A stretch of DNA of 35,770 nt from an uncultured Candidatus Saccharibacteria bacterium (GCA_965230975.1 OZ246402.1:1-35770), one strand, 5' to 3'; numbered from the stretch's first letter, positions 13,929-31,091 are shown. Translations and numbers: made by a program. Notes: a model not told the origin generated them from the letters alone.

Positions 13929-13944
13929 ATTCAGTAAACTGGTA

Positions 13945-13967: not shown

Positions 13968-14009
13968 TCGATTATCGGGACTACTTTTCTATCTGCAATT
14001 AATGTGACA

Positions 14010-14189: not shown

Positions 14190-16643
14190 TTAAAAGCCTA
14201 AACCACCAAAAAGACTATCTTTCTTATCCTCTTTTTCCTTCTCTTTGGTAAAGGTACTTCTTAATTTAATCTCGTTTTCTATAATATTTCTATCTCTACC
14301 ATATTTAAGCCTTGAAATTTGCCTTGCGACTTCTGCAATTTCTTGATTAGGCTTACCAATCATATCATAAGGAGAATCTCCATAAAAAGACCTACAAGAG
14401 AATGCAGGAGTTGGCTTACCATCTGTAAGCATTTTTAAATAGAAACTATAGTTTTCTACCTGTTGCAAATCTTTTGGATCAACTAAATCTTCCCCTACCA
14501 CTTTACCCAAAAAAGGTGCATCCTCTTCTCCAATTCTCATAATTGCTTTGTTTCCAACATTACCAAATACCGCATCTTTAATTTTGGTGTTGCCACCCTC
14601 TCTAGTTAACTGTCCCAAGAACTGATGCCCAATTGTAAGTGCAAGTTTGTATTTTCTAGCTTCAGATAGAATAGTTACAATTCCATCTGTTAAAAAGTTT
14701 TGAAACTCATCTACATACAAGTAAAATGGAGTTCTTTCTGACTCCGGAACATTCTCTCTTTCTAAGGCTCCTACCAAAAGTTTACCAACCAAAACCATAC
14801 CTAATAAAGATGCATTAAAGTCTCCAATCTTACCTTTTGAGAGCTTAACAATTAGAATCTTCTTTTTATCCATTATTTCTCTAAATTTTATGGATGATTC
14901 TTGCTGAGAAACTATTGGCCTTAAATATGCATTTGATAAAAAGCTTGCCATTTTAGATGTGACATATGGGGTAACATTTTTTAGAGAAACATCTCCACCC
15001 GCCTGCTCTGCTTGTTTTTTCCAAAAATCTACGGTTTCTTGATTTTTACATTTAGAAAGTTTATATGCTCTATAACCCTCATCTGCAAAAACTTTTGGCA
15101 CTTCAAGCAAGGTTGCACCAGATTCAGTGTCTTCTGTTAATAATAAAATTGCGTACCTAAAATATTGTTCAAACATTGGGCCTCCAGTGACCTTCAAGTT
15201 GTACAAGGTATCAAATATATTCAACATTTCATTAATTGCCAATGTTCTTTGCTCCTCGTTATTAAACTCTAACATGTTTATTCCCACAGGTCTTTCAAGA
15301 TCTGCTGGGTCTACAATTACAACGTCTTCTATTCTTTCTGGGGGTACTTGAGCCAAAATTTTCTCGGCATCTGTTCCGTGAGGGTCTATATACCCACAAC
15401 CATGACCCATTTTCATGTCTCTAATCATCATTCCACTCATGAAACCAGATTTACCTGTACCTGTTTGTCCAATAACATAAAAATGTCTCAGCCTATCTTC
15501 TGGCTTTAAAAAGATTTCTCTAAACTGACCTCTATATGTATTTCGGCCAACATACATATAGTCTTTTTGAAAGCTATTAGTTACAAAATCTGGTGCTGGC
15601 AAACGTTTTGCCAATTGCCATTTAATATACGGTGTTTTTATATTTCTGTTTGGGAAGTGAAAAAGAGTTGCAAGTTCTGATGTGTTAAGAACCATAGAAT
15701 CTGAAGGGATTCTATATATAAATTCTGCCACTATGTTTTTTAAATTTTCGCTAGAAACTTTCTTTAGTTTATTACTACCAATCTTGGTAAATGGCTCAAA
15801 AGAACTTAACATGTTTGTTAAATGAGTATCTGCAGAAAACTTATCATCAGAAATAACTACTAATCTTGCACAAACATTAAATACAGGTTTTTGTATTTTT
15901 TGTTCTACAAAAGATAAACCCTCATCTTCTTTTTTAGGTTTTGGAGTCTCTCCTTCTTTTGGTGCAGGAGGTGGTTCTTTCATTTTATTTACATAGTCTT
16001 TTGTTTTATTTCTCCACTCAGAATCTGCCGGGGTTATAATTACTTGAAATGCGGCAGCTTCTTTATCTTGCAATTTACTAAATGCATCTGTAAGTGTTGA
16101 AATTGTATCTACAGGTAGTTCTTCGTAAGTTTGTATTGGATATTTAGAGTCCTTATCTAAAATAAGACCCGTATATGCAACGTGACTATCATCATCTGGA
16201 AAAAGGTTGTATTCTTTTACTATAGTTATTTCTGCTGTTGGGTATGTTCCATTAATTTGCCTATCTACAAGGCTTGAGATTTTTTTAGGGCAAACTACAT
16301 AAAACTTGATAGTTTCTTTAAAAGCGACCATTTCAAAACTAATAAATGACCTGGCTTTAATGTGTTTATTTAAACCTTTTAACTTTTCACTTACACTCAG
16401 TAAACCTGAATACAATTGCTCTGCAGCTTTAATTTCCACATCATTATTTTGAGGCAATTTAATTTCGTAAAATACCAAATTTAAGCCCTTTTCTTTTAAT
16501 ACATTCTCTTTAAATTTATTAAAAAGTTTTAATGCAATTATGTAAAGCACTATGAAAATAATTATCACAGCTACCAAACCAATTCCCAATGGAACTAAAA
16601 AATTGAAGTTGAAGTTTGTATTTAATATACTTTGAGACCTCAT
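14190..16643 (-). CDS. Membrane-anchored T4SS-type P-loop ATPase (VirD4/TraD/TrwB-like coupling protein; VirB4-like not excluded)
   Basis: 817 aa. It has an N-terminal TM helix (LVPLGIGLVAVIIIFIVLYIIAL), a ~350-aa N-domain and a Pro/Lys/Glu-rich linker (EPPPAPKEGETPKPKKEDE). Walker A is VIGQTGTGKSG and Walker B is FYLYVDEFQNF. ARKYKLALTIGHQFLGQL resembles the TrwB/TraD GxQxxxQL block. Confidence 0.65.
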   Translation of the reverse strand: MRSQSILNTNFNFNFLVPLGIGLVAVIIIFIVLYIIALKLFNKFKENVLKEKGLNLVFYEIKLPQNNDVEIKAAEQLYSGLLSVSEKLKGLNKHIKARSFISFEMVAFKETIKFYVVCPKKISSLVDRQINGTYPTAEITIVKEYNLFPDDDSHVAYTGLILDKDSKYPIQTYEELPVDTISTLTDAFSKLQDKEAAAFQVIITPADSEWRNKTKDYVNKMKEPPPAPKEGETPKPKKEDEGLSFVEQKIQKPVFNVCARLVVISDDKFSADTHLTNMLSSFEPFTKIGSNKLKKVSSENLKNIVAEFIYRIPSDSMVLNTSELATLFHFPNRNIKTPYIKWQLAKRLPAPDFVTNSFQKDYMYVGRNTYRGQFREIFLKPEDRLRHFYVIGQTGTGKSGFMSGMMIRDMKMGHGCGYIDPHGTDAEKILAQVPPERIEDVVIVDPADLERPVGINMLEFNNEEQRTLAINEMLNIFDTLYNLKVTGGPMFEQYFRYAILLLTEDTESGATLLEVPKVFADEGYRAYKLSKCKNQETVDFWKKQAEQAGGDVSLKNVTPYVTSKMASFLSNAYLRPIVSQQESSIKFREIMDKKKILIVKLSKGKIGDFNASLLGMVLVGKLLVGALERENVPESERTPFYLYVDEFQNFLTDGIVTILSEARKYKLALTIGHQFLGQLTREGGNTKIKDAVFGNVGNKAIMRIGEEDAPFLGKVVGEDLVDPKDLQQVENYSFYLKMLTDGKPTPAFSCRSFYGDSPYDMIGKPNQEIAEVARQISRLKYGRDRNIIENEIKLRSTFTKEKEKEDKKDSLFGGLGF

Positions 16644-16715
16644 ATGATTTTGCTTATTAAGTATATGCTAATGGTAGTTTAGAGTCTAGAGTAATAGTTT
16701 GCAATTCAAATTTGT

Positions 16716-17294
16716 TTACTTTTTTGATTTGTATTCTTGCAAAAACTTTTCAAATTGATTAGCTAACCAAGTACTTGTATTAGATGTAGATCCATTTTTA
16801 TTACTTTGAATATAGTCTTCTACTTGGTTTAAATCTGTTGGATCAAACTTTGTAACTTTAAAACCCTCATCAAAAGGCATTGGCATTTTAATATCTACAA
16901 CAGGCGTAGCAACTTGTGGGGTAGAAGCTTGAGCATTTTGTGCTGTATTAACTTTAGATTGTTTTTCTGATGCTTTTTCTATTGAGCTCTCTTTTTCTGC
17001 AGATTTTTCTATATTTACCTCAAGGCTAGATGAATCAACACTTGGAGGCATAACAGGCATTTGCTCTAAATTACCACCACTAGAAGTATCAGATGCCTTT
17101 TTTATTTGTAACTGCACAAAATCATATGCAACTTTCAAAGGAATTACCTGCCCATTTGGTGCTGTAACTAAAGGTGCATTATTTTCATCATTACCAAAAT
17201 ATTTAAACCCAAACTGCTCTATTTGAGACAATACAACACTAACCTGCGGATTTGAGTTAGCTGATGTGTTAGTATTTTGATTTGTAGTATTCAT
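16716..17294 (-). CDS. Hypothetical low-complexity (Asn/Ser/Thr/Gln-rich) soluble protein
   Basis: 192 aa with no TM segment. It starts 2 nt after the smpB stop and ends 72 nt upstream of the ATPase. Confidence 0.5.
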   Translation of the reverse strand: MNTTNQNTNTSANSNPQVSVVLSQIEQFGFKYFGNDENNAPLVTAPNGQVIPLKVAYDFVQLQIKKASDTSSGGNLEQMPVMPPSVDSSSLEVNIEKSAEKESSIEKASEKQSKVNTAQNAQASTPQVATPVVDIKMPMPFDEGFKVTKFDPTDLNQVEDYIQSNKNGSTSNTSTWLANQFEKFLQEYKSKK

Positions 17295-17296
17295 AG

Positions 17297-17761
17297 TTAA
17301 AAATTATATTGTTTTCTATCTTGATCTAATCTTTTTTGCATATCTTTTTCTTTTAATTTTTGTCTTTTATCAAACTTCTTTTTTCCTCTAACTAGGCCAA
17401 TTAATACCTTTACTAACTTTCCTTCGTTTTCATAAATTTCCAAAGGTACTGCTGTAATACCTTTTTTTTTAAGCTCTAAATCTATTCTTTTAATTTGATT
17501 CTTTTGCAATAAAAGACTTCTTTGTTTACGCTCCTCTTCTGGTGAATGTACAACGCCAGATTTCCAATTTGCGATAATTGCATTAACTAAGAAAGCTTGA
17601 TTACCAAAAATTTTAACAAAACTACCGCTTATACTACCTCTTCCACTTTTCAAAGATTTAACCTCCCAACCTTGCAAAACAATTCCGGCTTCGTATTTAT
17701 CTAAAACTTCAAAGTCAAAATAGGCTTTTTTATTATCTATTAGGGTTCTCATTGGCTGCAT
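17297..17761 (-). CDS. smpB: SsrA(tmRNA)-binding protein SmpB
   Basis: 154 aa. Family blocks are NKKAYFDFEVLDKYEAGIVLQGWEVKSLK, RKQRSLLLQKNQI, GITAVPLEIY and GLVRGKKKFDKR. Confidence 0.9.
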   Translation of the reverse strand: MQPMRTLIDNKKAYFDFEVLDKYEAGIVLQGWEVKSLKSGRGSISGSFVKIFGNQAFLVNAIIANWKSGVVHSPEEERKQRSLLLQKNQIKRIDLELKKKGITAVPLEIYENEGKLVKVLIGLVRGKKKFDKRQKLKEKDMQKRLDQDRKQYNF

Positions 17762-17781
17762 TATACCCTTTTAATAAGTCA

Positions 17782-20322
17782 TTACAAAGACACTTTTATA
17801 ATTTTTGACCCATCTAAAACATACACTGTATTTGTTGATTGATCTACCACAACCTCTTTTATATTAGAAAATATATTCTCTGTACCTCTATAAACAAATT
17901 GCTGAATAAACTTTACATTTTTTTGTTCATTATCTATAACTTCAAATACCATGACTCTTTTATTTTTTGGATCTGCAACTGCCATATAGTTTTGGTCAAG
18001 ATCAATTGCTGTAGCTTGTGATAAGGAGTTGAAATCAGTTTGAGCAAAGTTTTGATATGTTTCATAATTCAAACTATTGTCACCTCCTGCCAAGTATCTT
18101 TTAATACCTGTGCCCTCAATCAAAACATAAATTTCGTAAGGCACAGAGATATCTATAGCCCTAGCGAATTCTGCATCTGTCTTCCAATTTGGAGGATTAA
18201 TCGTTACATAAATTGAGCCTCCGCCTCCATAAGAATTACCTACTTTATCTCGTTTGAATATTTGCTGATGATTTTGGTGCAATTCGTATAGAGCATCATT
18301 ATTTGAATATATTGCTGCTTCGCTAATATTACCTATTAAAGCTGTAGACAAGCCGGCTAACCTTGTAAATTCTCCGGATTGTGTATTTAAAATACCCATA
18401 GAGCTTGATGTATCTGAATCGTAAACAACTAGATTATTTGCAGCATTTCTAACTAAATGTGCTGGTGTATTTAAGTTTTTAATTAGCTCTTGAGCAGTAG
18501 AGTTTACGCCTGTATTTATTTTGTAAACTACATTTCTTTTAGCATCTGTTGCATACAAGCTACCATTTGCAATAGCTAAATCTGATAGATTTGTATCTGA
18601 AAATAACTTGCCAACATCAGTTACTAATTGAATGTTTGACTCGTTAATCTCTTTAATAAAAGATAATGAATCTTTAGCTAAATTAATTTTCACTTTAAGT
18701 CTATCTAATTCATCTGTAAAAAGGTTCTCTTTCTTTTGAGTATCAATAGATGTAGCAAGTGTAGTTAATTTATTGCTTAAAATATCTTTTTTTGTTTGAT
18801 CTTGATTCTTAACAGTCTCAACTTGACTTACCGCTTGGTTAACTTCAGATTCTAATTGAGACACTTTAGATGTAACATTTTGAATTCTTTCTGATTCCCT
18901 TCTTGAATTATCTGCATCTTTCCAAGCGAAATAAATCAAACCTACTAAAATAATTAGTACAATAACCATTATTACTCTATTACGTTTTAATTTATCTGCA
19001 TTCTTTCTTCTATCTAACCTATCTAAACCTATAACATCATTTTTTAAAAACTGTAAAAACTTACCAAATAATATTTTAATTTTTTGGAAAAGTGTTTTAG
19101 CAACTTGCTGATATGTTTTTTGACCTGTAGAGCCCTCGCCTTTTTTAAAAGCAAAATTTTCTTTTAATGTAGCAGCAGTATTTTTTACACTTTCAAAAGT
19201 ATTTGAGTTTGCATTTGGGTTTTGAACATATGAGTTGTTTAAACCATTGTTTGTTGACTTTGAATCCTGATATTCATTGCTTTGATCATCTTCAAATTCT
19301 GTAAATTCAGGACCAACCTGTGCTTTATTTTTGTAAGTTGGTAACTTGGATGCTAAACCAGAGACTTTTTGAGATACATTCTTAAACCGGTTACCAAACT
19401 TATTTACAAGACCTACTGTGGTTGTGCTCTCTTCTACTAAATCGATATCATTCTCTCTACCATCATTTGCCCATTCATTATCATAAGGTATTGATTCTGT
19501 TTGCTCACCCGTAGGGTTTAATTGAGTAGATGATTGTAAATCATTTGAGTTGGTAAATGTATCTTCATTAAAATCATTAGGTGTATCTTCTATAAATTCT
19601 CCTATAGGGACTTGAGAGTCAATAACTTCAGTTGTATTGTCTACATCTATAATAGGAGCTTGTGGTACTGGTGCAAATGAATTCCAATTTTCAGATTCGT
19701 CTGCAAAGATCAATATTGCAGAACCTTTATCTTCTGATATATCTCCAAGTAAATCTACTTGTAAATACTTTGCTAATTCTTCTAATTTTGATAGTGAACT
19801 TGTATAAGGTGTTGATGTTGTTAACAAGATTCTATCTGAACTCTCAAGCTTTAAGCTACCTGTTTTTACAAAGCCCATCATATTTGCATCTACCAACCCT
19901 TTTGAAATATCTACAAGCTTTTGATTTCTGTAAATAAATAACTTACTGTCTCCAATAACCCCAACTGTTAGCAAATCTTTATTAACAAGTGCAATAGACA
20001 TTTCTATATCCATCCCTTTTTCTAAAATCTCATCTTCTCTAGATACAATTACCTCTAGTTTGGTTTTCATTTTTTGCAAAGCTTCTTCTAGCTTTACAAT
20101 CTCATCCTCTTCGACTAAATCGTTATAGTAAGCATCTTGAAACTCGTCTAGTAGCATTTTAGCTATTCTTTCTAACTCTACATTTTCTGCGTCGGATTTG
20201 AGTCTTACAACACAAAATAACTCACTTTCAATCTCAGCGCCTTCATCTGGCCTATAGCCGTAAATACCAGACCAGTCGTTACCTGAAATCTTTCCAACTA
20301 AGTAATTCGCTTTTATATTCAT
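17782..20322 (-). CDS. Bitopic protein: N-terminal PP2C/SpoIIE-like domain, TM helix, coiled coil, C-terminal beta-propeller-like repeats
   Basis: 846 aa. PP2C-like blocks are LLTVGVIGDSKLFIYRNQKL, SDRILLTTS and GSAILIFAD, but no DGHGG-type metal motif is seen. A long N/S/T/Q-rich linker leads to the TM helix VIMVIVLIILVGLIYFAW and a coiled coil. Blade-like repeats include LYATDAKRNVVYKI, LVVYDSD, YMAVADPKNKRVMVFEV and VYVLDGSKIIKV. Confidence 0.5.
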   Translation of the reverse strand: MNIKANYLVGKISGNDWSGIYGYRPDEGAEIESELFCVVRLKSDAENVELERIAKMLLDEFQDAYYNDLVEEDEIVKLEEALQKMKTKLEVIVSREDEILEKGMDIEMSIALVNKDLLTVGVIGDSKLFIYRNQKLVDISKGLVDANMMGFVKTGSLKLESSDRILLTTSTPYTSSLSKLEELAKYLQVDLLGDISEDKGSAILIFADESENWNSFAPVPQAPIIDVDNTTEVIDSQVPIGEFIEDTPNDFNEDTFTNSNDLQSSTQLNPTGEQTESIPYDNEWANDGRENDIDLVEESTTTVGLVNKFGNRFKNVSQKVSGLASKLPTYKNKAQVGPEFTEFEDDQSNEYQDSKSTNNGLNNSYVQNPNANSNTFESVKNTAATLKENFAFKKGEGSTGQKTYQQVAKTLFQKIKILFGKFLQFLKNDVIGLDRLDRRKNADKLKRNRVIMVIVLIILVGLIYFAWKDADNSRRESERIQNVTSKVSQLESEVNQAVSQVETVKNQDQTKKDILSNKLTTLATSIDTQKKENLFTDELDRLKVKINLAKDSLSFIKEINESNIQLVTDVGKLFSDTNLSDLAIANGSLYATDAKRNVVYKINTGVNSTAQELIKNLNTPAHLVRNAANNLVVYDSDTSSSMGILNTQSGEFTRLAGLSTALIGNISEAAIYSNNDALYELHQNHQQIFKRDKVGNSYGGGGSIYVTINPPNWKTDAEFARAIDISVPYEIYVLIEGTGIKRYLAGGDNSLNYETYQNFAQTDFNSLSQATAIDLDQNYMAVADPKNKRVMVFEVIDNEQKNVKFIQQFVYRGTENIFSNIKEVVVDQSTNTVYVLDGSKIIKVSL

Positions 20323-20360
20323 AACCCATGATTTTTAACTTTTTACAGTATATCAGAAAG

Positions 20361-20585
20361 TTAAAGCAAAATTATCAATAGAAGAATGACAATTAGTATA
20401 AAAATGTAAATTACATTTATTATTGTAAATAAAGGCTTATTGCCTGTAGAAAAAATATTATTCATACTTGAAATTCTGCTTACCAAGACAATCCCGACTA
20501 GAAAGTGAAACAAAGCAAAAAATATTGCTACAAGCTTTATTACCTCTGCAATAGTATTATTATCCATCTGTATATCTTTTAACAA
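20361..20585 (-). CDS. Small two-TM membrane protein
   Basis: 74 aa with two hydrophobic helices. It overlaps the upstream gene end by 8-26 nt depending on the start used (Met7 is also possible). Confidence 0.4.
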   Translation of the reverse strand: MLKDIQMDNNTIAEVIKLVAIFFALFHFLVGIVLVSRISSMNNIFSTGNKPLFTIINVIYIFILIVILLLIILL

Positions 20586-21369
20586 TTTTAACTAAATCCA
20601 TAATCACATCCCTTACCCTTGTTGGGTCTGCAATATAATCAAAGCTTAATTCTCCGGCATTAGATGCAGTTCTAACCTTTATTGTTCCATAGTTAAGCAT
20701 ATCTGCCAAAAATCCTAAAGACTGCTCTTCTACATCTTCTAAACTTCTTAATGGAGCCTCCGCAACCTTGTACCCTTGAAATGGAGAAAATTCATAATCC
20801 AAAATTCTGTGGTTAGTTACAATATAAATATCGTAATACCAATCATAAAAATTTTTAATTACATTTGAAAATATTATTGAGTAATAAGCCAAAAGTATTA
20901 TTATAAATACCCTAAAAGATAAAAATTCTATACTTATATTTAGCAATTGAAGAATTATTATTGAAATAAATGGAATTAATGCATAAAAAACATTGTTAAT
21001 AATCCAGCCTATGTTTCTAATCCAGTGCATTCTTACTAAAACATATATTTTTTCATCTGCATCTTGCGTTGCAAAAGTCATTCGTTTTGGTCTGTATTGA
21101 ATACTTCCAAACCACTTAGACATTCTCTTTGGGACAACAGCTTCTATCTCTTGATCAATCATTTGCTTTAAAACCATGCTATCTATTTTTGGCTGATTCA
21201 CACCATTTGGATAAGTGCCCTGAAACTGCGGTGGGTAAGGATAATAATTTTGAGGGTTAAATGGTGTGCCCGGCTGTGACATTGAGTTATTTGATGGGTA
21301 AGGATTATTATTTACCGGCTGAGTATTTGGATTATTTGCACTTGGCTGTATTAGATTTGTATCACTCAT
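20560..21369 (-). CDS. Membrane protein with bacterial PH (YdbS/YdbT-like) domain and Pro/Asn/Gln-rich N-terminus
   Basis: 269 aa with two TM helices (IGWIINNVFYALIPFISIIILQL and VFIIILLAYYSIIFSNV). They are followed by YDIYIVTNHRILDYEF...GTIKVRTASNAGELSFDYIADPTRVRDVI, typical of the bPH_2 layout. Confidence 0.5.
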   Translation of the reverse strand: MSDTNLIQPSANNPNTQPVNNNPYPSNNSMSQPGTPFNPQNYYPYPPQFQGTYPNGVNQPKIDSMVLKQMIDQEIEAVVPKRMSKWFGSIQYRPKRMTFATQDADEKIYVLVRMHWIRNIGWIINNVFYALIPFISIIILQLLNISIEFLSFRVFIIILLAYYSIIFSNVIKNFYDWYYDIYIVTNHRILDYEFSPFQGYKVAEAPLRSLEDVEEQSLGFLADMLNYGTIKVRTASNAGELSFDYIADPTRVRDVIMDLVKIVKRYTDG

Positions 21370-21428
21370 GTTTAAATTTAATTACTTTAATAATATCATC
21401 TTTTAGTTAATTATATAAAATTACCATT

Positions 21429-23222: not shown

Positions 23223-24618
23223 TTACCTGCCTTATATTGTTATATTTTTCTATGATTTCGTCAAATCTAAGTTGCTTACAGAAAATTACAAGTGGCAAAT
23301 ATACTTTTGTATTTTGAGTTTGATTATTGCCCTGCATTAACATTGAAATGTATTCATCATCCGGCTTTACAGATAAATTTGAAGAAAACTCAATATTTTC
23401 TTTTTCTATTTTTAAAATATCCAACTCTCTTCTTTTTTTATAATAGGTATCTACATCTATATTTTGCTTTTCTAGTTCTTCTAAACTTTTTTTTGATTCC
23501 TCTATTTGCGAAATTGTATTTTTTAAAGATGACTGAATATTTTCTAAGGTTTCACCTCCAAGGGATTTATTTATATTTTGATTTATATTCTCCTGCTCTG
23601 CTAATAAAGCATTTAAGTATGCACCCTTTACCATCTTCATATCTTCGGCTTGTGTTGCAAAAAGTTGTACATCAGTACCTTGTGGTATAGGAGCTACAGG
23701 CATTTGTTCATTTTTTTTGATCTCTTTTTTATTACTAACCTGTATAACAACAAATATCACAAGAAAAGTCATAGACACTGCTAAACCCAAAAGTAATAAG
23801 CCTATATTTGATGAAATCAAAAAATAAACTATGCTTGCTAAAACCTGAATAACAACAAGGGCTAAGATCCACTTATGTTTTAGTTTAATTGGATCTGGTT
23901 CTATTTTGTAGGTTTCTGCCATTCTACTAGCCTGCTTAAAACCACCACTTAATTTTTGATTTAACTGATCAATTCTCTCTTCTTTAATTTTATTTATCTC
24001 ATCTGTTTTATGATGTGCATTTTCATTTTGAACCTTTAAAACCTCTGACTCTACCTTTGTTTTGCCATCTAACAAAGATTGTACAGATGCAAGCTTTTGT
24101 TCTAAATTACCTTTAGATTTCTCTAATTCTGAAATCTTGCTGTTTAAAGACTCCTTGTTTGTTTTTTGACTTTGATAACCCGATACATCTTTATCTAAGT
24201 TCTTAATTTTGATAAGTATTTCTGCAAGCTTATTAAAATTTGCAATTTCATTTTCTTGCATACCATTTGTAAGCTGTTGAAATTTTGAATTTACATTCGT
24301 AGATGGCGTAGCTACATTTAACCCAATAGATTTTTCTTGAGCTATAGAATCTATATTTAATTGTGCAGTTTCAGGCAAAAGAATGTATTCACTTAGCAAT
24401 TGATTGTGAACAGGAATTTGTAAACCTTGTAAAAATGTAAGGTAGTTTGCAACAGATAAATGCTCTTGGCCATCAACTAATATATTTGATTCTACAGAGG
24501 ATTGGCCTCCGTTTAGAAAGTTTTTTATTTCTGATGCAACTTCGCTAGATATTGATACAGGTGCATTAGTATTTAAAACCAAATCTTTAATTTTTAGTGA
24601 CTTTATATCTATTCTCAT
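23200..24618 (-). CDS. Coiled-coil membrane protein with central TM hairpin
   Basis: 472 aa. Long heptad-like stretches lie on both sides of two adjacent TM helices (WILALVVIQVLASIVYFLI and LLLLGLAVSMTFLVIFVVIQV). Its end overlaps the SpoIID-like gene start. Confidence 0.55.
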   Translation of the reverse strand: MRIDIKSLKIKDLVLNTNAPVSISSEVASEIKNFLNGGQSSVESNILVDGQEHLSVANYLTFLQGLQIPVHNQLLSEYILLPETAQLNIDSIAQEKSIGLNVATPSTNVNSKFQQLTNGMQENEIANFNKLAEILIKIKNLDKDVSGYQSQKTNKESLNSKISELEKSKGNLEQKLASVQSLLDGKTKVESEVLKVQNENAHHKTDEINKIKEERIDQLNQKLSGGFKQASRMAETYKIEPDPIKLKHKWILALVVIQVLASIVYFLISSNIGLLLLGLAVSMTFLVIFVVIQVSNKKEIKKNEQMPVAPIPQGTDVQLFATQAEDMKMVKGAYLNALLAEQENINQNINKSLGGETLENIQSSLKNTISQIEESKKSLEELEKQNIDVDTYYKKRRELDILKIEKENIEFSSNLSVKPDDEYISMLMQGNNQTQNTKVYLPLVIFCKQLRFDEIIEKYNNIRQVIVLYENL

Positions 24619-24681
24619 ATTTCTAGAAATGTTTATTTACATTCTACTGAAGTTTAAGATGGAAAGAAAATGAAATTTGAT

Positions 24682-25488
24682 TTAATTTTGAAGCCAAGTA
24701 CCCCGATCTGCAGTACTACCGCCTGTTGCGCACACAAAGAACATACGACTTGCTGCACCTGCTGAATCTGGAGCTAAGTTTTCTGTATATATTTGAGTGG
24801 TTGTAATATACCTTTCGCCACAAAAGATCATTGACCCCGGGTTGCTACAAGCTAATCCATCTGGCAATGTGCCCCCAGATTCACAAGTATTTCTAAGGTA
24901 AGTTTCGTTTCCAGTACATATGCTTGTAAAAAAGAATTGAAATCCGGGCATATTTACGTTGTAACATTCTACATCTGTATTTACACCAAGCAATCTAAAC
25001 ACCGTTGTTAAAATTGGAACTGCCAAAAAAACTAGTATAAAACCTATTACGTAATTAATTATCTTTTTTCTAAGCTCTACTAGTTGATTGTCAGAAGTTC
25101 CACCTCTTAAAATATATTGATAGCCTAAAACCACAAGTAACACAAAAGAAAAAGATGCAACGAGTGCCCAAATTATGTATAAAATTCTAATAAACCAAAG
25201 TTCTATCTGCTGCAAAGCTGGTGGTATTAAATAAGCTCTATCATCTCCGGAAACGCCATCATCATCTAGGCCTCTACATAAATAATAGCCTGTTGCACTA
25301 TCTTTATAAATCGTTGCACTACTTCTGTTTCCAAATTTATCTAAACATTGGTAAGATGCTTCATCGTTACCTGAAAATGGGTTTGTTTGAATTTGTGCTT
25401 GGGCAATAGTTGGGAAAGCGATAGTAAAAAGAAGGCCTAATACTAGGCCAACTTTTAATTTATTTTTAGGTAAACCTATTAAATTCAT
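24682..25488 (-). CDS. VirB2/TrbC-like pilin paralog 6 with Cys-containing N- and C-terminal extracellular extensions
   Basis: 268 aa. The signal peptide ends AFPTIAQA. The core is TM, RGGTSDNQLVELRKK, TM. There are 8 Cys, 6 of them in the ~95-aa C-terminal module. Confidence 0.5.
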   Translation of the reverse strand: MNLIGLPKNKLKVGLVLGLLFTIAFPTIAQAQIQTNPFSGNDEASYQCLDKFGNRSSATIYKDSATGYYLCRGLDDDGVSGDDRAYLIPPALQQIELWFIRILYIIWALVASFSFVLLVVLGYQYILRGGTSDNQLVELRKKIINYVIGFILVFLAVPILTTVFRLLGVNTDVECYNVNMPGFQFFFTSICTGNETYLRNTCESGGTLPDGLACSNPGSMIFCGERYITTTQIYTENLAPDSAGAASRMFFVCATGGSTADRGTWLQN

Positions 25489-25491
25489 TAA

Positions 25492-25980
25492 TTAGTTTAA
25501 ATCATTTGTAATTTGATCTACTCCTTCTTGTGGCAATGGGTTTGTTAATGCACCAGTTGCCTCAAATAGTACCAAAATCAAGACTAGGCCAATAACACCT
25601 ACAAACAATGCTATTAAACCAACAAATACGCTTTTAATTGCTTTTTGTGCAGATTCAATTTTATCTTTATCTCCTTCAGATCTAATATATTTAATAGCAG
25701 CTTTAATAACAATGTAAACAGCAACAACAATAATTGCAATAAAGATAAACGATGCTCCTAATCTTGCCAAGTTTACTGCTTGTTGTGCTAAAGTTGTTTT
25801 ATCTGGAACAGCATCGGCTTTTCCTGAACAAACGCTATCTATACCAAAAGCCCCAATGTTTTTAATGAATGGGAATATATCACAAACTACACTACCTGTT
25901 GTTTGTGCATGAACCGGAATTGGGTTTATAGTTAAAGTTGCTAATGCGATTGCTGTTGCTACCAAAAGTTTCCTAAACAT
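25492..25980 (-). CDS. VirB2/TrbC-like pilin paralog 5
   Basis: 162 aa. The signal peptide ends PVHAQ. The core is TM (ASFIFIAIIVVAVYIVI), KYIRSEGDKDKIESAQKAIK, TM (VFVGLIALFVGVIGLVLILVL). It has 2 Cys. Confidence 0.6.
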   Translation of the reverse strand: MFRKLLVATAIALATLTINPIPVHAQTTGSVVCDIFPFIKNIGAFGIDSVCSGKADAVPDKTTLAQQAVNLARLGASFIFIAIIVVAVYIVIKAAIKYIRSEGDKDKIESAQKAIKSVFVGLIALFVGVIGLVLILVLFEATGALTNPLPQEGVDQITNDLN

Positions 25981-26043
25981 AGTTATCTTTTAAAATCTAT
26001 AAATTAATTAAATCACAATTATTTTAACACTGCAATAGAATTA

Positions 26044-26493
26044 TTAAAGAATAGGTAAATCCACCAAAGGTGGATCTTCAACCTGCTCATTAAAAATACC
26101 TGTTGCATCAAATAATACTGATATTACTATAATACCTATTACACCAACAAAGATTATTATTATTCCAAAAAATACACCTCTAATATTTTCAATACCTTCT
26201 TGAACTTTATCTTTGTCTCCTTCACTTCTGACAATCTTTAATACTGCTCTAATAATTAAAATTATCCCAAGCCCAATTATTGCAACAAATACCAGCGTTA
26301 AACCAAGTTTTATTAAATTACCCGAATCTGTATATGCACTTGCACAATCACCATTTGGGCAGCCTCCAACATCTGCACAAGGTATAAAATCACATAATCC
26401 TTGTGCTTTAATGCTTAAGTTAAAAAGACCGGGTAAAAAAGACGAGAATATTAAGATTAGTGCAAAAAATATAGTAAATAGTTTTGTTTTCAT
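26044..26493 (-). CDS. VirB2/TrbC-like pilin paralog 4
   Basis: 149 aa with a signal peptide and the motif CDFIPCADVGGCPNGDC (4 Cys). The core is TM, KIVRSEGDKDKVQEGIENIR, TM. The loop is near-identical to paralog 5. Confidence 0.6.
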   Translation of the reverse strand: MKTKLFTIFFALILIFSSFLPGLFNLSIKAQGLCDFIPCADVGGCPNGDCASAYTDSGNLIKLGLTLVFVAIIGLGIILIIRAVLKIVRSEGDKDKVQEGIENIRGVFFGIIIIFVGVIGIIVISVLFDATGIFNEQVEDPPLVDLPIL

Positions 26494-26505
26494 ATTGTTT
26501 TTAAA

Positions 26506-27030
26506 TTAAATTAGGCCCCCTCCCCCTGATGACCCACCAGTGTTTGAGGTATAACCACATTCTGCATCTGCTTCTTCCCTAGCATTTGCTCCACCTTTAT
26601 CTAAAAATGCCTGGAAATAGTAGTCGTAATCTGCAGATTCACAAGATCTAAACATTCTAGGCCACTCAAATATTGTTCCTAGGCCAGCAAATATTCCAAT
26701 AATACTTAAAATGACAGGAAATAAAAAACTCATAAAAACCCCTAGCAATATGTTTTGAAGTTTTTTTATTAGTTCTTGAATCTTATCGGCCTTTCCACCG
26801 CTTTGCATTCCTTCTACCCCTAACTGCACAATTTTAACTATCCAAAAAGCTACTATACCCAAGGTTGCAATTACCCCTAAAAAGGAAAGTAATGAAAAAA
26901 CAGTAGATGCAGACCCTGCAACAGCGCTAAAATCTACAAATAGTGGAATTGTTATTGGTTTTAAATTAACTTCGTCTGGTAAGTTTACTGTTGATTGTTG
27001 CAAAATTGTACTAATTATAGTTTGTAACAT
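26506..27030 (-). CDS. VirB2/TrbC-like pilin paralog 3 (no obvious cleavable signal; C-terminal extension)
   Basis: 174 aa. The core is TM (FLGVIATLGIVAFWIV), GMQSGGKADKIQELIKKLQN, TM. The C-terminal tail has 2 Cys and a Gly/Ser-rich end. Confidence 0.5.
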   Translation of the reverse strand: MLQTIISTILQQSTVNLPDEVNLKPITIPLFVDFSAVAGSASTVFSLLSFLGVIATLGIVAFWIVKIVQLGVEGMQSGGKADKIQELIKKLQNILLGVFMSFLFPVILSIIGIFAGLGTIFEWPRMFRSCESADYDYYFQAFLDKGGANAREEADAECGYTSNTGGSSGGGGLI

Positions 27031-27032
27031 AT

Positions 27033-27770
27033 TTATTGAATAACAATTGTTGGCACACCGGAATCCACTGGTGCATCTGGGTTAACCTGAAAATTAATTG
27101 TATTTAATGCAGGCAAACCAAGTATGCTAAATATAATTTGGGTTATTAACAAGAATGTAAGCGCCAAAATAAAGCCAATCAAAATAGCCCTTGCTTCTTT
27201 ACTAACAGCTGCAATATCTTCTTCTTTTGTAGTATTTGGTAATTTTATAGCATATATATAAATACCTCTAAATGCAGCGTAAATTGCCAAAACACCTATA
27301 ACTGTTGAGAATATAAAATTAATGATTGTAGGGATTTTTTCGTATGTAATATTTACTTTTGTGTTAAATATTTCAAAAGCAAAAAAATTAAGCTCAGCTG
27401 GAGTATCTATAGCAACACTCTCGTCTTTACATTTATTTTCACAACAATCTACCCTGCCAGAAGAACCTGGAGTCGGTAATGATTTAGCTAAAATACATGC
27501 GTAATCGGGTTCATACTCTCCAGGTCCGGAACAACCTGCTGGAATACATGTAGATTGAATAGGACAAGCGCACACACCTGAACCACTAGAACTTTCTGTA
27601 CAGTAATATTGATTACCACCTCTAGTTGCACACCATTCAGTTACTAACTTACCCCTACAAAGTGAATCACTTAGTGGGCCACAATCTTGTGCCTTCACGT
27701 TATTAGAAACCAAGAACGATGCTATTACTAAGAAAGCTGTAAATAAAAATATTTTAAAGATATTATTCAT
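27033..27770 (-). CDS. VirB2/TrbC-like pilin paralog 2 with N-terminal 12-Cys module
   Basis: 245 aa with a signal peptide, then a ~90-aa module containing 12 Cys. The core is TM (FSTVIGVLAIYAAF), KLPNTTKEEDIAAVSKEAR, TM (ILIGFILALTFLLITQIIF). Confidence 0.5.
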   Translation of the reverse strand: MNNIFKIFLFTAFLVIASFLVSNNVKAQDCGPLSDSLCRGKLVTEWCATRGGNQYYCTESSSGSGVCACPIQSTCIPAGCSGPGEYEPDYACILAKSLPTPGSSGRVDCCENKCKDESVAIDTPAELNFFAFEIFNTKVNITYEKIPTIINFIFSTVIGVLAIYAAFRGIYIYAIKLPNTTKEEDIAAVSKEARAILIGFILALTFLLITQIIFSILGLPALNTINFQVNPDAPVDSGVPTIVIQ

Positions 27771-27773
27771 ATT

Positions 27774-28151
27774 TTAAAAAATATTAAGAGTATCTACTCC
27801 TAAGAAACTTGCAACCACACCTGTTATAGCTGGTGCGAATACTGCAATTGCCATACCAACAATTGCTGCAACAATAATATTTCTTGCTGTTTTAATTTTA
27901 CCCTCATCTCCTTGAGATGTTAGCCAAACCGCAGCAGCATAGAGAATCATTCCAATAAATGTGAGTATAAATAATGGTCTAATTAAGCTTGTTGCAAAGT
28001 TTATTACTTGTTCTAAATCATCAAATACAGTTGGATTTGGAATTTGAGGTAAACCCAAACTGCCAGAGCTAGCAAAAGTTGTAATTTTAAAAGATAAAGA
28101 AAAAACTAGCACTAATAAAAAAAGAACAAATTGTTTGGTTAACTTTTTCAT
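27774..28151 (-). CDS. VirB2/TrbC-like pilin paralog 1 (minimal form)
   Basis: 125 aa. The signal peptide ends TTFASS. The core is TM (LFILTFIGMILYAAAVWL), TSQGDEGKIKTARN, TM (IIVAAIVGMAIAVFAPAITGVV). It has no Cys. Confidence 0.6.
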   Translation of the reverse strand: MKKLTKQFVLFLLVLVFSLSFKITTFASSGSLGLPQIPNPTVFDDLEQVINFATSLIRPLFILTFIGMILYAAAVWLTSQGDEGKIKTARNIIVAAIVGMAIAVFAPAITGVVASFLGVDTLNIF

Positions 28152-28206
28152 AAATTTAATTTAAGATACTCATAATTTAATACATATTGACTTAATTATC
28201 AAAAAA

Positions 28207-30771
28207 TTACTTAACTTCTTGAATAGATAATCCGTTCAAAAAAACATCATCACCATCTTTTACATTACCTAAAATTATTTCATTTGCTAATATGTCTTCT
28301 ATTCTTTCTTGCACAACCCTTCTCAACTCTCTAGCACCCCACAATGGTGAGTAACCTATTTTGGCCAGTTCTTCTAATGTCTTATCATTCCAATGAATTA
28401 CAATACCTTTCTCGATTAACTTCGTATTGACTTCTGCTAAGAATTTCTCAACAATTTTTGTAATTTCTAACAAACTTAAATGTTTAAACATTATTAATTT
28501 ATCAAATCTATTTAAAAATTCAGGTCTAAAATAATTACTTAATATTTCTAAAGATGAACTTTTTATTTCTGAATAGCTCTCTTTTTGCTGGTATAACTTT
28601 TGAATCTCTTTTGACCCTACATTTGAAGTCATAATTATAATTGTATTGTAAAAATCTATTTTTCTTCCCATTCCATCTTTAAAGAATCCATCATCTAAGA
28701 CAGATAAAAATAAATCCAAAACTTTAGGATTTGCTTTTTCAATCTCATCTAATAATACCAAGGCAAAAGGCCTTGACCGAACTGTGTCTGCTAAAAAGCC
28801 TTTTGTATAACTCCCATCAGAATTATAACCACCTATCAATCTTGTTAAATTTTGCTCTTCTTGATATTCGGACATATCTATTCTAATCATTAAGTTCTCA
28901 CTTCCGTAATATAAATCTGCCAATGCTTTTGCTAATTCTGTTTTGCCTACCCCTGTTGGTCCGTAAAATAAAAACGAAGCTATTGGTTTTTTACTATTGG
29001 TTAATCCGGACCTTGATCTTTTAATTGCAGCAACTACAGGAGTTATTGCTTCGGTTTGACCAACTACTCTACTTTTTAAATTATCTTCCAAATTACCAAG
29101 CACCTGTTTTTCATCTATACCTAAGTTTCCAATCTTTACGCCAAGTTTTGTATAAAGAAGCTCTTCTACCAAAGAACCGTCCAAATAGTTGAAACCTTTA
29201 GACTTTGCCAAAACCATAGCCTCTTCTAATAAATCCATGCCTTTTAAAGGCATCTTTTTTTCGTAATCAAATTTATATGCATAATCTACAATTCTTTTAA
29301 GTGCCGAAAATTGAATAGATATTTGATTTTTGCTCTCTTTGCTAAGTGCTTCATCTGCCATTATTTGTAATGCAATTTGTGGGTCGGGCTCTTTAATTTC
29401 TAAAACATCAAATTTAGAAGCTAAATCTAAATCACTTTTTATATATTTTTGATAGTTTAATGGTTCATCAATCGCAATAAATTTAATTTTATTATCTAGT
29501 AGATTTTTTAATAGATTAACTGCTTCATCTTTCAAATTAGATCTAAAACTAAATAAACTTGTAAAGTTTTCACCAATTAATAGAATTTCACCAGATGCAG
29601 AAACCTCTTGAAATATTGCCAAAAATATTTTTTTTATATCTTCTATGCTTTGGGCATTTGCTATTATTTTTGCAAAGTTTAAAACAACAAGCCTACTATC
29701 TTTTAATTTTGAAGGCACGTCTTCTACTACCATTCTTGTAGCTAAATATTTTATAAAGGTTGTTTTGCCAACTCCACTTTCACCAAGCAAATAAACAAAT
29801 GTAGATGTATCTCTTTCTAGCAAAGACAATAAATTTGTCATTAACTCTTCTTTCCCAATTGAAATGCTAAAACTTCTGTTTGCGGCCTGGCTTGTTAAAT
29901 CTTGCCCGTATTTATCTAGCGTTGGAGTAATTGTAGATGTATATGTTGTATTTACGTCCCCAATCGGTTTAAGCTGGGACAAGATTTTCCATTTTTTTTG
30001 GTACTCAAATTTTTGATTTGAGTTAGAGTACCATTTTCTTAGGCCATCAAGTTCTAAATCTGTTACCTTGTTTTCTATCAAGCCAGGCCGCAAGTAATAT
30101 TTAAGCAATGTAAAAAATATTACATAAAGATTAATTCCAGATGTATTAAGTAAAATCCCTTCATTTAATAGTCTAGAAAAGAAATTTACATAATCTTCTG
30201 AAAAAGTTAAAAAGGTGGTTTTATTAACAAATTCATTTAATTGATCTGCATTTAACCCTAGCCTTTTTGAAAGGATGTTTGAAAACCTGGAGTCTTTTAT
30301 TAAGCTACTAAAAAGATATTTAATATAAGTGCTATCTTTATTATAAAGCTGATTTAATAACATTGAGGACTCTATATCTAAAAAGTCATTAATATAAAAC
30401 CCTTTTTCTTTTTTATTGGCAGATGCAAAGATTTTTGTGAGTTTTTGTTTTTTATGATTTAGTTCTAGGCTATTTCTGTCTCTTTTTAAAAAGTACCCAA
30501 TTATCAGTGAGACAATTAATAAATAAGGTATTAAATGTAATATACTTTTTGGCTTAATAAAATCTGCAAAATAGAATGTACCCTGTAATATCAAAATTCC
30601 AAAAACAATCAGTAATAAGATTATTGAAATTGAGATTAAAAAATTACCCAACTTTCTCTCTTGATTGTAACGTTCATGTTTTAAGCCGTTGTATTCAAAT
30701 AGTCTGCCAAAATCCAAGTAAATATAGATATTTCTAAATTCGAATAGTTTTTCAATACCTTGGTTTTTCAT
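28207..30771 (-). CDS. Membrane-anchored Hsp100/Clp-family double-AAA+ ATPase (ClpB/ClpA/ClpV-like; D1 degenerate, D2 intact)
   Basis: 854 aa with two N-terminal TM helices (FLISISIILLLIVFGILIL and LIPYLLIVSLIIGYF). D1 has Walker A GESGVGKT, but Walker B is ILLIGE (usual ILFIDE) and SKF replaces RRF. D2 has GPTGVGKTELAKALA, LVLLDEIEKA, MTSNVGS, PEFLNRFD and GARELRR. No M-domain-length insert or IGF/IGL ClpP loop is seen. Confidence 0.8.
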   Translation of the reverse strand: MKNQGIEKLFEFRNIYIYLDFGRLFEYNGLKHERYNQERKLGNFLISISIILLLIVFGILILQGTFYFADFIKPKSILHLIPYLLIVSLIIGYFLKRDRNSLELNHKKQKLTKIFASANKKEKGFYINDFLDIESSMLLNQLYNKDSTYIKYLFSSLIKDSRFSNILSKRLGLNADQLNEFVNKTTFLTFSEDYVNFFSRLLNEGILLNTSGINLYVIFFTLLKYYLRPGLIENKVTDLELDGLRKWYSNSNQKFEYQKKWKILSQLKPIGDVNTTYTSTITPTLDKYGQDLTSQAANRSFSISIGKEELMTNLLSLLERDTSTFVYLLGESGVGKTTFIKYLATRMVVEDVPSKLKDSRLVVLNFAKIIANAQSIEDIKKIFLAIFQEVSASGEILLIGENFTSLFSFRSNLKDEAVNLLKNLLDNKIKFIAIDEPLNYQKYIKSDLDLASKFDVLEIKEPDPQIALQIMADEALSKESKNQISIQFSALKRIVDYAYKFDYEKKMPLKGMDLLEEAMVLAKSKGFNYLDGSLVEELLYTKLGVKIGNLGIDEKQVLGNLEDNLKSRVVGQTEAITPVVAAIKRSRSGLTNSKKPIASFLFYGPTGVGKTELAKALADLYYGSENLMIRIDMSEYQEEQNLTRLIGGYNSDGSYTKGFLADTVRSRPFALVLLDEIEKANPKVLDLFLSVLDDGFFKDGMGRKIDFYNTIIIMTSNVGSKEIQKLYQQKESYSEIKSSSLEILSNYFRPEFLNRFDKLIMFKHLSLLEITKIVEKFLAEVNTKLIEKGIVIHWNDKTLEELAKIGYSPLWGARELRRVVQERIEDILANEIILGNVKDGDDVFLNGLSIQEVK

Positions 30772-31091
30772 ATTCTAAAGACAAATCTTATAACCCCGTA
30801 TACTGGTATAAAAGGTAATATTGCCAATAATACTAGTAATAAAATTGGGAGTACTACTTTAAAAATGCTAATTATGGTTCCCAAACTAATCCACCAAAAC
30901 TTTACTATCTTGCCAAACATAAGTCCAAAGCCGGAATTATCTTTATATAAAGGGATATTAAAAGTCTTTGCGAAAGGCAAAGCCCTGGTTTTATTCATAG
31001 AAAAAATAAAGGTTGCTAAGACTTTATCATTCAAAAAGCCCCAACAAACAACCGAATACCACCAGTTAAAAACTTCTAGAAACAAAGACAT
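30768..31091 (-). CDS. Small polytopic membrane protein, translationally coupled to the Clp-like ATPase
   Basis: 107 aa with hydrophobic helices (WWYSVVCWGFL, FWWISLGTIISIF and VLPILLLVLLAILPFIPVYGVI). Its stop overlaps the ATPase start in a 4-nt ATGA overlap. It is preferred over the mirror-image plus-strand ORF 30760-31104. Confidence 0.5.
   Translation of the reverse strand: MSLFLEVFNWWYSVVCWGFLNDKVLATFIFSMNKTRALPFAKTFNIPLYKDNSGFGLMFGKIVKFWWISLGTIISIFKVVLPILLLVLLAILPFIPVYGVIRFVFRI

Follow-up and report, generated by a model that had tools for sequence, protein, structure and literature searches.

Do sixteen tightly packed genes on one strand make up a single secretion machine, or do they only share a stretch of chromosome? 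The question is raised by positions 14190-31091 of the window, by which we mean the whole stretch of 35,770 nucleotides (nt) that was analysed. The closest homologues of the window proteins, where the source is named, are labelled Candidatus Dojkabacteria, a class of Patescibacteria (Candidate Phyla Radiation). Patescibacteria hold a large share of bacterial diversity, and their cultivated members grow only attached to host cells. The bacterium behind the window is tiny and probably depends on a host. In the only species studied by genetics so far, the type IV system and its pilin array are essential. A first-pass annotation took the sixteen genes for one lineage-specific machine resembling a type IV secretion system (T4SS). 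This claim did not hold. The genes are scattered outside the clade, smpB is embedded among them, and the housekeeping flanks are equally collinear.

The reading that we prefer has, in our judgement, about an even chance of being right. The 17-kb stretch would be a gene order specific to the Dojkabacteria clade, made of separable modules and housekeeping genes, and not one self-contained machine. As part of this reading, module A (24682-31091), which holds a small membrane protein, a Clp/Hsp100 ATPase and six pilins, would be the pilus-subunit part of a dispersed, relaxase-less patescibacterial type IV system. Module B (17782-24618) would consist of envelope proteins around a SpoIID-type peptidoglycan-cleaving enzyme, tied to module A at the level of the clade only. 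The housekeeping gene smpB is a passenger. At the end of the array comes the gene for a VirB4/VirD4-superfamily motor that is spread across the Patescibacteria; its tie to the pilins is positional and confined to this clade. We do not claim a new type of secretion machine from this locus.

The open reading frames (ORFs) of the array are listed below from its Clp end to its ATPase end, with protein lengths in amino acids (aa).

30768-31091, minus strand: 107-aa small membrane protein of module A, with two C-terminal membrane helices; it overlaps the start of the Clp gene by 4 nt.
28207-30771, minus strand: 854-aa membrane-anchored Clp/Hsp100 ATPase, double AAA+ (Pfam AAA_2 and ClpB_D2-small).
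27774-28151, minus strand: pilin 1, 125 aa, signal peptide and hairpin; PF18895 (T4SS_pilin) at 30.8 bits, above the 26.6 cut-off.
27033-27770, minus strand: pilin 2, 245 aa; NCBIfam Mbov_0395 pilin-like (E 1.8e-4), PF18895 (E 0.013).
26506-27030, minus strand: pilin 3, 174 aa; hairpin and loop motif.
26044-26493, minus strand: pilin 4, 149 aa; the best match in the window to the CagC/VirB2-like TrsB of pGO1.
25492-25980, minus strand: pilin 5, 162 aa; PF18895 (E 0.014) and hairpin alignment.
24682-25488, minus strand: pilin 6, 268 aa; PF18895 at 25.4 bits (E 1.5e-5), just under the 26.6 cut-off.
23200-24618, minus strand: 472-aa coiled-coil protein; the coiled coils flank a membrane hairpin with helices at residues 246-292.
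21429-23222, minus strand: 597-aa protein with coiled coil and SpoIID/LytB domain, secreted or anchored; its start overlaps the upstream gene by 23 nt.
20560-21369, minus strand: 269-aa membrane protein (two helices); its match to bPH_3 is below cut-off (E 0.0045).
20361-20585, minus strand: 74-aa protein with two membrane helices; DUF5657 (PF18901, E 4.9e-5, 23.9 bits against a cut-off of 25).
17782-20322, minus strand: 846-aa protein that crosses the membrane once; its N-terminal part is PP2C-like but degenerate, and it also has a coiled coil and a probable propeller.
17297-17761, minus strand: SmpB, the tmRNA-binding protein of trans-translation (PF01668, E 4e-45).
16716-17294, minus strand: 192-aa protein of low complexity, acidic and rich in lysine, without membrane helices; the gap to the ATPase gene downstream is 72 nt.
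14190-16643, minus strand: 817-aa membrane-anchored ATPase of the VirB4/VirD4 superfamily (TraG-D_C and DUF87 in Pfam/NCBIfam; AlphaFold2 model compared by Foldseek).

Our ORF check of the window returned sixteen minus-strand ORFs with the coordinates of the first-pass annotation. From 31091 to 14190, the spacing between them is -4, 55, 3, 2, 12, 63, 3, 63, -23, 59, -26, 38, 20, 2 and 72 nt. This agrees with the claim of gaps of 72 nt or less, or overlaps, since the range goes from a 26-nt overlap to a 72-nt gap. The array had also been presented as a co-directional unit. Its packing is real, but it is not distinct: tight packing on the minus strand is the rule across the window, where about 27 of the 32 protein genes lie on this strand. 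A HAD gene stands 77 nt upstream of the array, so the array boundaries are arbitrary.

We compared the gene order in 80 loci around homologues of the ATPase, with one genome per species, together with loci from an exact-protein look-up. All were annotated with profiles of the window proteins. The 11 loci of the Dojkabacteria clade (ATPase identity 54-77%) keep every covered part of the order. It consists of pilins, 472-aa protein, SpoIID, PH-domain protein, DUF5657, a protein of about 800 aa, SmpB, low-complexity protein and ATPase. Most of these loci also keep the genes after the ATPase, namely xer, a 144-aa gene, ftsH, polA and a DeoR-like gene. Because these housekeeping flanks are equally collinear, the gene order of the clade says little about a common function.

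About 72 loci belong to other classes (ATPase identity 38-43%). There, the 472-aa, PH-domain, DUF5657, SmpB and low-complexity proteins are never near the ATPase. SpoIID is near it once, a pilin lies within 10 kb in 6 loci, and a propeller-type protein adjoins it in 4-5. The loci with a pilin or a propeller protein beside the ATPase are L005, L006, L032, L036, L041 and L086. Unsupervised clustering of the neighbours in 73 non-clade loci brought out another conserved setting. Downstream of the ATPase, dnaX (for the clamp-loader tau/gamma subunit) is present in 38-40 of the 73. Directly upstream, 51 of the 73 have a small charged ORF; in the larger of the two ORF families concerned, the median gap is 5 nt. 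An unknown protein of about 217 aa is found downstream in 28 of the 73, and then come cysS, serS, corA and dus. This arrangement suggests that the ATPase, a member of the DUF8128 family, forms a conserved operon with the small ORF and dnaX in a replication-related setting. The conserved setting of the DUF8128 family is housekeeping, not secretion. The context in which dnaX follows the DUF8128 gene can be seen among loci L015-L086, for example at 12165-13964 of L044.

The Clp-pilin part has an order of its own. In L087, L088, L090 and L094, which cover the Clp gene and the DNA downstream, pilins follow it in every case. Their number is six in L087 (Clp identity 44%), four up to the contig end in L094 and eight by pilin profile in L088. 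The same stretch of L090 (Clp identity 37%) has seven gene calls. Ahead of the Clp gene, L087, L090 and L093 have a gene for a small membrane protein. As far as the contigs reach, the order small membrane protein, Clp and pilins is kept in L087, L088, L090, L093 and L094. In L088 and L090, unrelated genes come after the pilin array, and the SpoIID-to-ATPase part is absent. For this reason, the Clp-pilin module is separable from that part. On the other side, groES-groEL lie directly upstream of Clp in L087, L088, L090 and L093. In the window and in L091, a HAD gene and a 98-aa ORF stand between them. Across the relatives, the genes of the array are thus scattered outside the Dojkabacteria clade, with the ATPase by dnaX and the Clp-pilin module alone. 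The reading of the locus as a self-contained machine fails this cross-class synteny test.

What does module A encode? The 107-aa membrane protein has no match in Pfam or NCBIfam. In L093, its orthologue (E 1e-21) is the immediate upstream neighbour of the Clp gene, and ORFs of 108 and 111 aa hold its position in L087 and L090. The next protein had been called a Clp-like ATPase, and its matches to AAA_2 (169 bits) and ClpB_D2-small (72 bits) agree with this. Both AAA+ modules align to the ClpB structure 1qvr. The first 265 residues carry two membrane helices in place of the Clp N domain, and there is no match to Clp_N (PF02861). The M domain, needed for the ClpB-type cooperation with DnaK, is missing: the alignment to 1qvr jumps from ClpB residue 390 to 526. 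Neither this ATPase nor any orthologue has a ClpP-binding IGF/IGL loop. The Walker B motif of the first ring (D1) is degenerate, with GEN here and LEE, LED or IDD in the orthologues; D2 is canonical. The NCBIfam models for ClpB (434 bits), TssH (344 bits) and ClpA are all far under their cut-offs. The protein is rare. Only 14 full-length orthologues were found among 5.8 billion proteins, and an exhaustive search with the N-terminal 300 residues gave 40 representative clusters among 1.84 billion. A metagenome scan for further membrane-anchored Clp loci returned two short contigs only. Judging from sequence, a rare membrane-anchored Clp/Hsp100 ATPase that always precedes a pilin array looks new. 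A match of the Clp protein to TrsD of pGO1 (E 6e-4, in a set of 28 proteins) was rejected as an 8.7-bit chance match inside D1.

ClpV, which recycles the sheath in type VI secretion systems, is the nearest known comparison. With ClpV/TssH and ClpB, the window protein shares the double-ring Hsp100 architecture, the lack of a ClpP-binding loop and a gene beside those of polymerising secretion components. Unlike them, it has a two-helix membrane anchor instead of a soluble N domain, no M domain and a degenerate D1 Walker B. Moreover, its putative partners are membrane pilins and not a cytoplasmic sheath, and the functional analogy with ClpV is one that we infer.

The six pilin-like genes of the first-pass annotation are borne out. 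PF18895 is above cut-off for pilin 1 and near it for pilin 6. Pilins 2-5 are tied to the family by sub-threshold PF18895 or pilin-like NCBIfam matches, by their layout and by our own pilin profile. All six have the same plan: a signal peptide, then a two-helix membrane hairpin with a conserved charged loop. Iterated profiles seeded with pilin 3 and with the alignment of the six hairpins recover pilin ORFs in related loci. The best window matches of TrsB from pGO1 are three of these six pilins, although the matches are weak. Hairpin identity is 42% between pilins 4 and 5, and 14-24% for most other pairs. The six pilins of L087 pair with those of the window one to one and in order (pilin 6 at 171 bits), and the first four have positional orthologues in L094. 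Given the one-to-one match with L087, the six paralogues are old and individually maintained. Distinct structural roles fit these sequences better than interchangeable antigenic variants do. Pilin 1, the smallest VirB2/TrbC-like pilin, is the candidate for the major subunit. Pilin 2 has a Cys-rich N-terminal extension with 13 Cys ahead of the hairpin, and pilin 6 has Cys-rich segments on both sides of it. These extracellular extensions could be disulfide-stabilised adhesin or tip domains.

Under our preferred reading, the pilins would be exported by Sec and then parked in the membrane as two-helix hairpins. An ATP-driven step would pull them from the membrane and polymerise them into a mixed filament. 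This filament might have one small major subunit plus Cys-rich minor or tip subunits, and might contact the host cell. The Clp hexamer, with only the D2 ring intact, may handle the pilins at the membrane (extraction, recycling or quality control). The SpoIID-type enzyme could open the wall locally. That a rare Clp always precedes six individually conserved pilins favours a mixed filament served by a handling ATPase of its own over a set of redundant antigenic variants.

The 817-aa protein had been described as a VirD4/TraD-like membrane ATPase, and the coupling-protein signatures agree. TrwB_AAD_bind, TraG-D_C and DUF87 match the motor in 18 of 18 family members. The NCBIfam TraD and CD1115 VirD4-like families also match it, and TrwB, Cag-beta and DotL match the motor structurally. 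Weak FtsK_SpoIIIE matches are present in 12 of the 18. There are more than 3500 homologues. Among the matches listed, every one with a named source comes from Patescibacteria, and so do nearly all the recovered loci.

We modelled the ATPase with AlphaFold2 from an alignment of 18 sequences, with a predicted local distance difference test (pLDDT) score of 82. The N-terminal domain modelled alone (residues 52-345) reached 86. The model shows one N-terminal membrane helix, an alpha/beta domain at about 55-345 (Pfam DUF8128 in the homologues) and a RecA-like motor. Between its Walker A and B motifs, this motor has an insert made of helices only. With the full-length model, Foldseek against the PDB gives R388 TrwK/VirB4 first (E 1e-14). 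HerA, TrwB, Cag-beta and DotL come next, by the motor only (E 1e-10 to 1e-12). With the N-terminal domain alone, the top 14 hits are all TrwK/VirB4 (E 3e-7, TM-score 0.42-0.50), and the hits after them are unrelated ferredoxin-like folds with a TM-score of about 0.2. At the sequence level, CagE_TrbE_VirB matches none of the 18 homologues tested and no window ORF. AAA_10 gives weak matches in 4 of the 18 (best E 0.0026), and an hhalign comparison of the ATPase family with TrsD of pGO1 found nothing. The first-pass annotation saw no clear VirB4. By sequence this stands; by predicted fold, however, the N-terminal domain is VirB4-like. The ATPase is predicted to be a coupling-protein-like motor with a VirB4-like N-terminal domain. 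A DUF8128 domain that folds like the N-terminal domain of VirB4 looks new, as far as the model can be trusted; we found no mention of DUF8128 in the literature searched.

Compared with VirB4 (TrwK of R388; PDB 7o43, 8rtd), the ATPase has in common the N-terminal alpha/beta domain and the C-terminal RecA-like motor with its helical insert. On the other hand, its motor signatures are of the coupling-protein type, it has its own N-terminal membrane helix, and it matches no VirB4 sequence family. The DUF8128 family also differs by its two copies per genome, approximately, and by its housekeeping contexts. With the coupling proteins (TrwB, VirD4, TraD, DotL), it shares the membrane anchor, the helical domain between Walker A and B, and the matches to TrwB_AAD_bind, TraG-D_C and T4SS-DNA_transf. 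Unlike them, it has 290 extra residues, the DUF8128 domain, which separate the membrane helix from the motor. It also has one membrane helix where they usually have two, and no relaxase or DNA-transfer genes are nearby. A second DUF8128 paralogue, of about 970-1000 aa, lies within a few kb of the one of about 830 aa in many Patescibacteria, often beside a sigma-70 gene. Examples are L005 18321-21311 and L006 18202-21108, and also L054 and L071.

Module B is less well defined by its families. The 472-aa protein gives only weak matches of the coiled-coil type. It is present in 10 Dojkabacteria-clade loci and in 0 of about 72 other Patescibacteria loci. The 597-aa protein had been called a coiled-coil SpoIID-like cell-wall enzyme. 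TIGR02669 is above its cut-off (129 bits against 83.3), PF08486 matches with E 9e-13 and PDB structures of SpoIID with E 2e-9, so the protein is a probable peptidoglycan lytic transglycosylase. For the 846-aa protein, the matches are weak: PP2C (E 0.0016), ScyE (E 0.003) and designed 'Pizza' propellers. It evolves fast, with only 9 homologues in 5.8 billion proteins. It probably carries an extracellular beta-propeller. By eye, the GDS(K) motif and the PP2C spacing are kept, and the DGxGG and DG metal-binding motifs are absent. The PP2C-like part would probably be a pseudo-phosphatase domain on the cytoplasmic side. For the proteins annotated as PH-domain and as PP2C/beta-propeller, the membrane parts were recovered, but the domain labels are weak (E 0.002-0.005).

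Between module B and the ATPase, the SmpB call is secured by its PF01668 match. The 192-aa protein has no family match in Pfam or NCBIfam and is conserved within the clade. We considered whether it is homologous to the small ORFs found ahead of the ATPase elsewhere, and rejected this. The hidden Markov model match (E 6e-5) reflects Glu/Lys-rich low complexity, and the hhalign probability is below 8%. So, only the position is common to it and the small charged ORFs of 51 of the 73 non-clade loci.

Is the rest of a type IV system present? The VirB4 ATPase is the one signature protein common to all type IV systems. No VirB4 sequence family was significant in the window ORFs or in the 10 kb beyond the window end. 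For a VirB6-type channel, there was no TrbL/VirB6 match, and no array protein has more than four predicted hydrophobic segments. VirB3/PrgI and VirB8/PrgL gave no Pfam or NCBIfam match in the window, even at relaxed E-values, and neither VirB3, VirB6 nor VirB8 was matched in the 10 kb past its end. No relaxase domain was found in any window ORF or in the 10 kb beyond the window end, and there were likewise no signs of mobile elements. This supports the first-pass annotation, which listed a relaxase and a VirB6-like channel as missing; neither appears in the array or about 10 kb past the window end. The three ingredients that it counted as present (pilins, wall hydrolase and VirD4-type ATPase) are all confirmed by profile matches. 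A search with TrsE of pGO1 in all the fetched loci matched DUF8128 paralogues only. As a type IV cluster, the co-located genes have no virB4 nearby, and their order is kept in the clade alone, together with the housekeeping flanks. Two genomes of the Dojkabacteria class are listed as VirB4-positive (Table S1, PMC12102498). For this reason, a core type IV system is probably elsewhere in the genome, and this is the most likely place for the VirB4, TrsD, VirB3 and VirB6 genes.

The published systems help to place these findings. In Southlakia epibionticum, a type IV cluster is essential for growth on the host; an essential series of pilin genes belongs to it, whereas neither a coupling protein nor a relaxase could be recognised (Wang et al. 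2023, PMC10633639). Its six VirB2-like pilins are structurally conserved and divergent in sequence (PMC12857230, a review). Of 3,035 Patescibacteria genomes, 2,417 have VirB4, and these proteins form a clade inside the MPF-FATA class of monoderms (Quinonero-Coronel et al. 2025, PMC12102498). In the same survey, TrsD, VirB3/PrgI and VirB6 were often near virB4, 383 assemblies had VirB2 arrays (2-11 genes each), and relaxases were almost absent. Its count of VirD4-like coupling-protein homologues was 5,713 in 2,918 genomes (about two per genome), of which only 148 lie near virB4. From the approximately two copies per genome and the Pfam signatures, we infer that the DUF8128 family corresponds to these homologues. 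In a cultivated member of the same phylum, tubular structures that are possibly type IV pili are seen at the interface between parasite and host.

According to these surveys, pilins, hydrolase and coupling-type ATPase are the published repertoire, and the absence of a relaxase is the norm. The T4SS reading of the first-pass annotation is right in its ingredients. However, a relaxase-less system with VirB2 arrays was already published (PMC12102498; PMC10633639), and the single machine does not stand. Like the patescibacterial type IV system (PMC10633639; PMC12102498), the locus has tandem divergent PF18895 pilins, six here and six in S. epibionticum. It also has no relaxase, a VirD4-like ATPase away from virB4, a chromosomal non-mobile location and a nearby wall hydrolase that is not a VirB1 homologue. 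Unlike it, no virB4, trsD, virB3/prgI or virB6 is in or near the array. A Clp/Hsp100 precedes the pilins, and Clp is unmentioned in the main text of both papers. The hydrolase is of the SpoIID type, and the locus is beside groESL and the rRNA operon, not dnaA. The monoderm MPF-FATA systems (pGO1 trs, pCF10 prg) have in common with it an envelope of the Gram-positive type, a minimal set of components and a wall hydrolase of their own, and the small CagC/VirB2-like TrsB of pGO1 weakly matches the window pilins. The difference is that TrsD, TrsE (VirB4), a TrbL/VirB6-like protein, TrsK and relaxases are together in one pGO1 operon. Of that set, only a distant relative of the TrsK type was found here.

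Could the sixteen genes still be a self-contained, stripped-down T4SS-like machine? The DUF8128 ATPase, possibly with Clp, would then stand for VirB4, and the coiled-coil and propeller proteins for the VirB6/8/9/10 scaffold. The whole order is present in all covering clade loci down to 54-57% ATPase identity. L004 and L012 keep it too, although the genes just past the ATPase are different there, or the distance to xer is. The short gaps and overlaps are compatible with few long transcripts. The ATPase has a predicted two-domain architecture like VirB4, no VirB4 or VirB6 is present in the window or 10 kb beyond, and six non-clade loci (named above) do have a pilin or propeller protein beside the ATPase. 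Nevertheless, the roughly 72 non-clade ATPases stand by dnaX, cysS, serS, corA and dus, with so few pilins and a single SpoIID near them, and L088 and L090 have Clp and pilins without the rest. The smpB gene is inside the array, and the flanks are as collinear as the array itself. There is no polytopic channel protein (the maximum in any protein is four predicted hydrophobic segments), and VirB4 has been reported from genomes of the class. We consider this explanation improbable.

A serious rival is that the genes are neighbours only. Clp would be a general unfoldase for membrane proteostasis (a groESL-clp unit), the ATPase a DNA or chromosome motor with an FtsK-like role, SpoIID an enzyme of growth or division, and the pilins would work with a VirB4 elsewhere. 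The array itself would reflect a streamlined genome biased to the leading strand, as nearly the whole window is on the minus strand with a steady GC skew. In L087, L088, L090 and L093, groES-groEL come directly before Clp. The ATPase family is near-universal in the phylum, if it corresponds to the coupling homologues of 2,918 of the 3,035 genomes, and its conserved neighbour is dnaX. Its weak FtsK_SpoIIIE matches, a Southlakia homologue that, in contrast to the type IV genes, proved dispensable for growth on the host, and the Xer recombinase gene just downstream of it in the clade go in the same direction. However, a general chaperone need not have pilins after it. Here pilins come after Clp wherever downstream DNA is present (L087, L088, L090, L091, L093, L094), the Clp N-terminal domain is confined to about 40 clusters, and Clp is without M domain or ClpP loop. 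In addition, the N-terminal domain of the ATPase is, in the model, VirB4-like and not like any FtsK domain. This explanation is possible, although we do not think it likely.

In a bolder reading, for Dojkabacteria and close relatives, the dedicated membrane-anchored Clp would drive subunit extraction or retraction of the mixed six-pilin filament, in a new, ClpV-like pairing. The DUF8128 ATPases would be a third, so far unrecognised branch of the VirB4/VirD4 superfamily, and in this clade they would serve as the pilus or secretion motor without a canonical VirB4 at the locus. If this were true, the DUF8128 ATPases would join a VirB4-type N-terminal domain to a coupling-protein-type motor across the phylum. 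We regard it as unlikely. A VirB4-type N-terminal domain in near-universal 'coupling protein' homologues, if the model is right, could change how surveys tell the two motor families apart. The predicted fold of DUF8128 also bears on which ATPase builds the pilus.

Several points weigh against the preferred reading of separable modules around a pilus-subunit part. The SpoIID module is tied to the pilins by clade-level gene order alone, which the housekeeping flanks share. In the loci that cover that side, groES-groEL stand upstream of Clp (within about 1.3 kb) as consistently as pilins stand downstream, and because of this conserved position Clp could be simply the chaperone of the cell. No VirB4 sequence family matches the ATPase, and its VirB4-like fold is a prediction with moderate TM-scores. 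Comparison by hhalign with single pGO1 proteins is indecisive (TrsE/VirB4 E 4e-5, TrsK/coupling protein E 1.7e-3). The presence of VirB4 in this genome is taken from a published table for other genomes of the class (PMC12102498).

The flanks of the array are nearly all on the minus strand and contain the following genes.

1-3077: rRNA operon and tRNAs, beyond the ATPase end of the array.
Between the rRNA operon and the array: polA, a methyltransferase gene, ftsH, a NUDIX gene, an Xer-like recombinase gene and tRNA-Ile(UAU).
Clp side of the array: a HAD hydrolase gene and groES-groEL.

The window has about 31% GC, uniform along its length, with a steadily negative GC skew. Promoter-like matches are no commoner in it than in shuffled sequence. 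An Rfam scan of the window returned rRNA and tRNA only, with no tmRNA near smpB. We also rejected an integrated conjugative element. The GC content is uniform, and the tRNA-Ile end and the opposite end of the array have no direct repeat in common. Moreover, the Xer-like recombinase and everything downstream of it are collinear in all clade genomes, as chromosomal backbone.

Beyond the Clp end, a short way upstream of the HAD gene, the strongest terminator-like hairpin of the region (31712-31739) reads on both strands. A stretch of 650 nt (31740-32398) separates it from groEL. The sole ORF of this stretch encodes 98 aa on the plus strand (31993-32289); it has no family match and is called as a gene in L091. 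Upstream of groES, 34524-35390 holds two small plus-strand ORFs (148 and 138 aa), also with no family match. Past the window end, L091 10448-18094 encodes three large uncharacterised proteins (638, 735 and 710 aa) downstream of an FtsA/PilM-like actin-fold gene, and the 710-aa protein has a weak match to the GlxA beta-barrel. A ClpX-like gene is also in the 10 kb past the window end. An FtsA/PilM-like gene with a large unknown gene after it is also present upstream of groESL in L087, L088 and L090.

At the other end, tRNA-Ile(UAU) (13854-13929, minus strand) has partial copies of itself on both sides, within 13788-14036. Its 3' half (41 nt) is repeated at 13788-13828 with 95% identity, and a 23-nt piece of its anticodon arm at 13945-13967 with 96% identity. 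In the downstream fragment, the anticodon loop is of the CAU type (…GCCCATAAAGC…); a related piece of 27 nt is at 14010-14036. Beside the Xer-like recombinase gene, these copies look like decayed tandem duplicates or old attachment-site scars. A tRNA-Ile(UAU) for AUA is uncommon among bacteria. With its UAU anticodon, it reads AUA directly, and two tRNAs with CAU anticodons are near, at 10981-11054 and 11181-11255.

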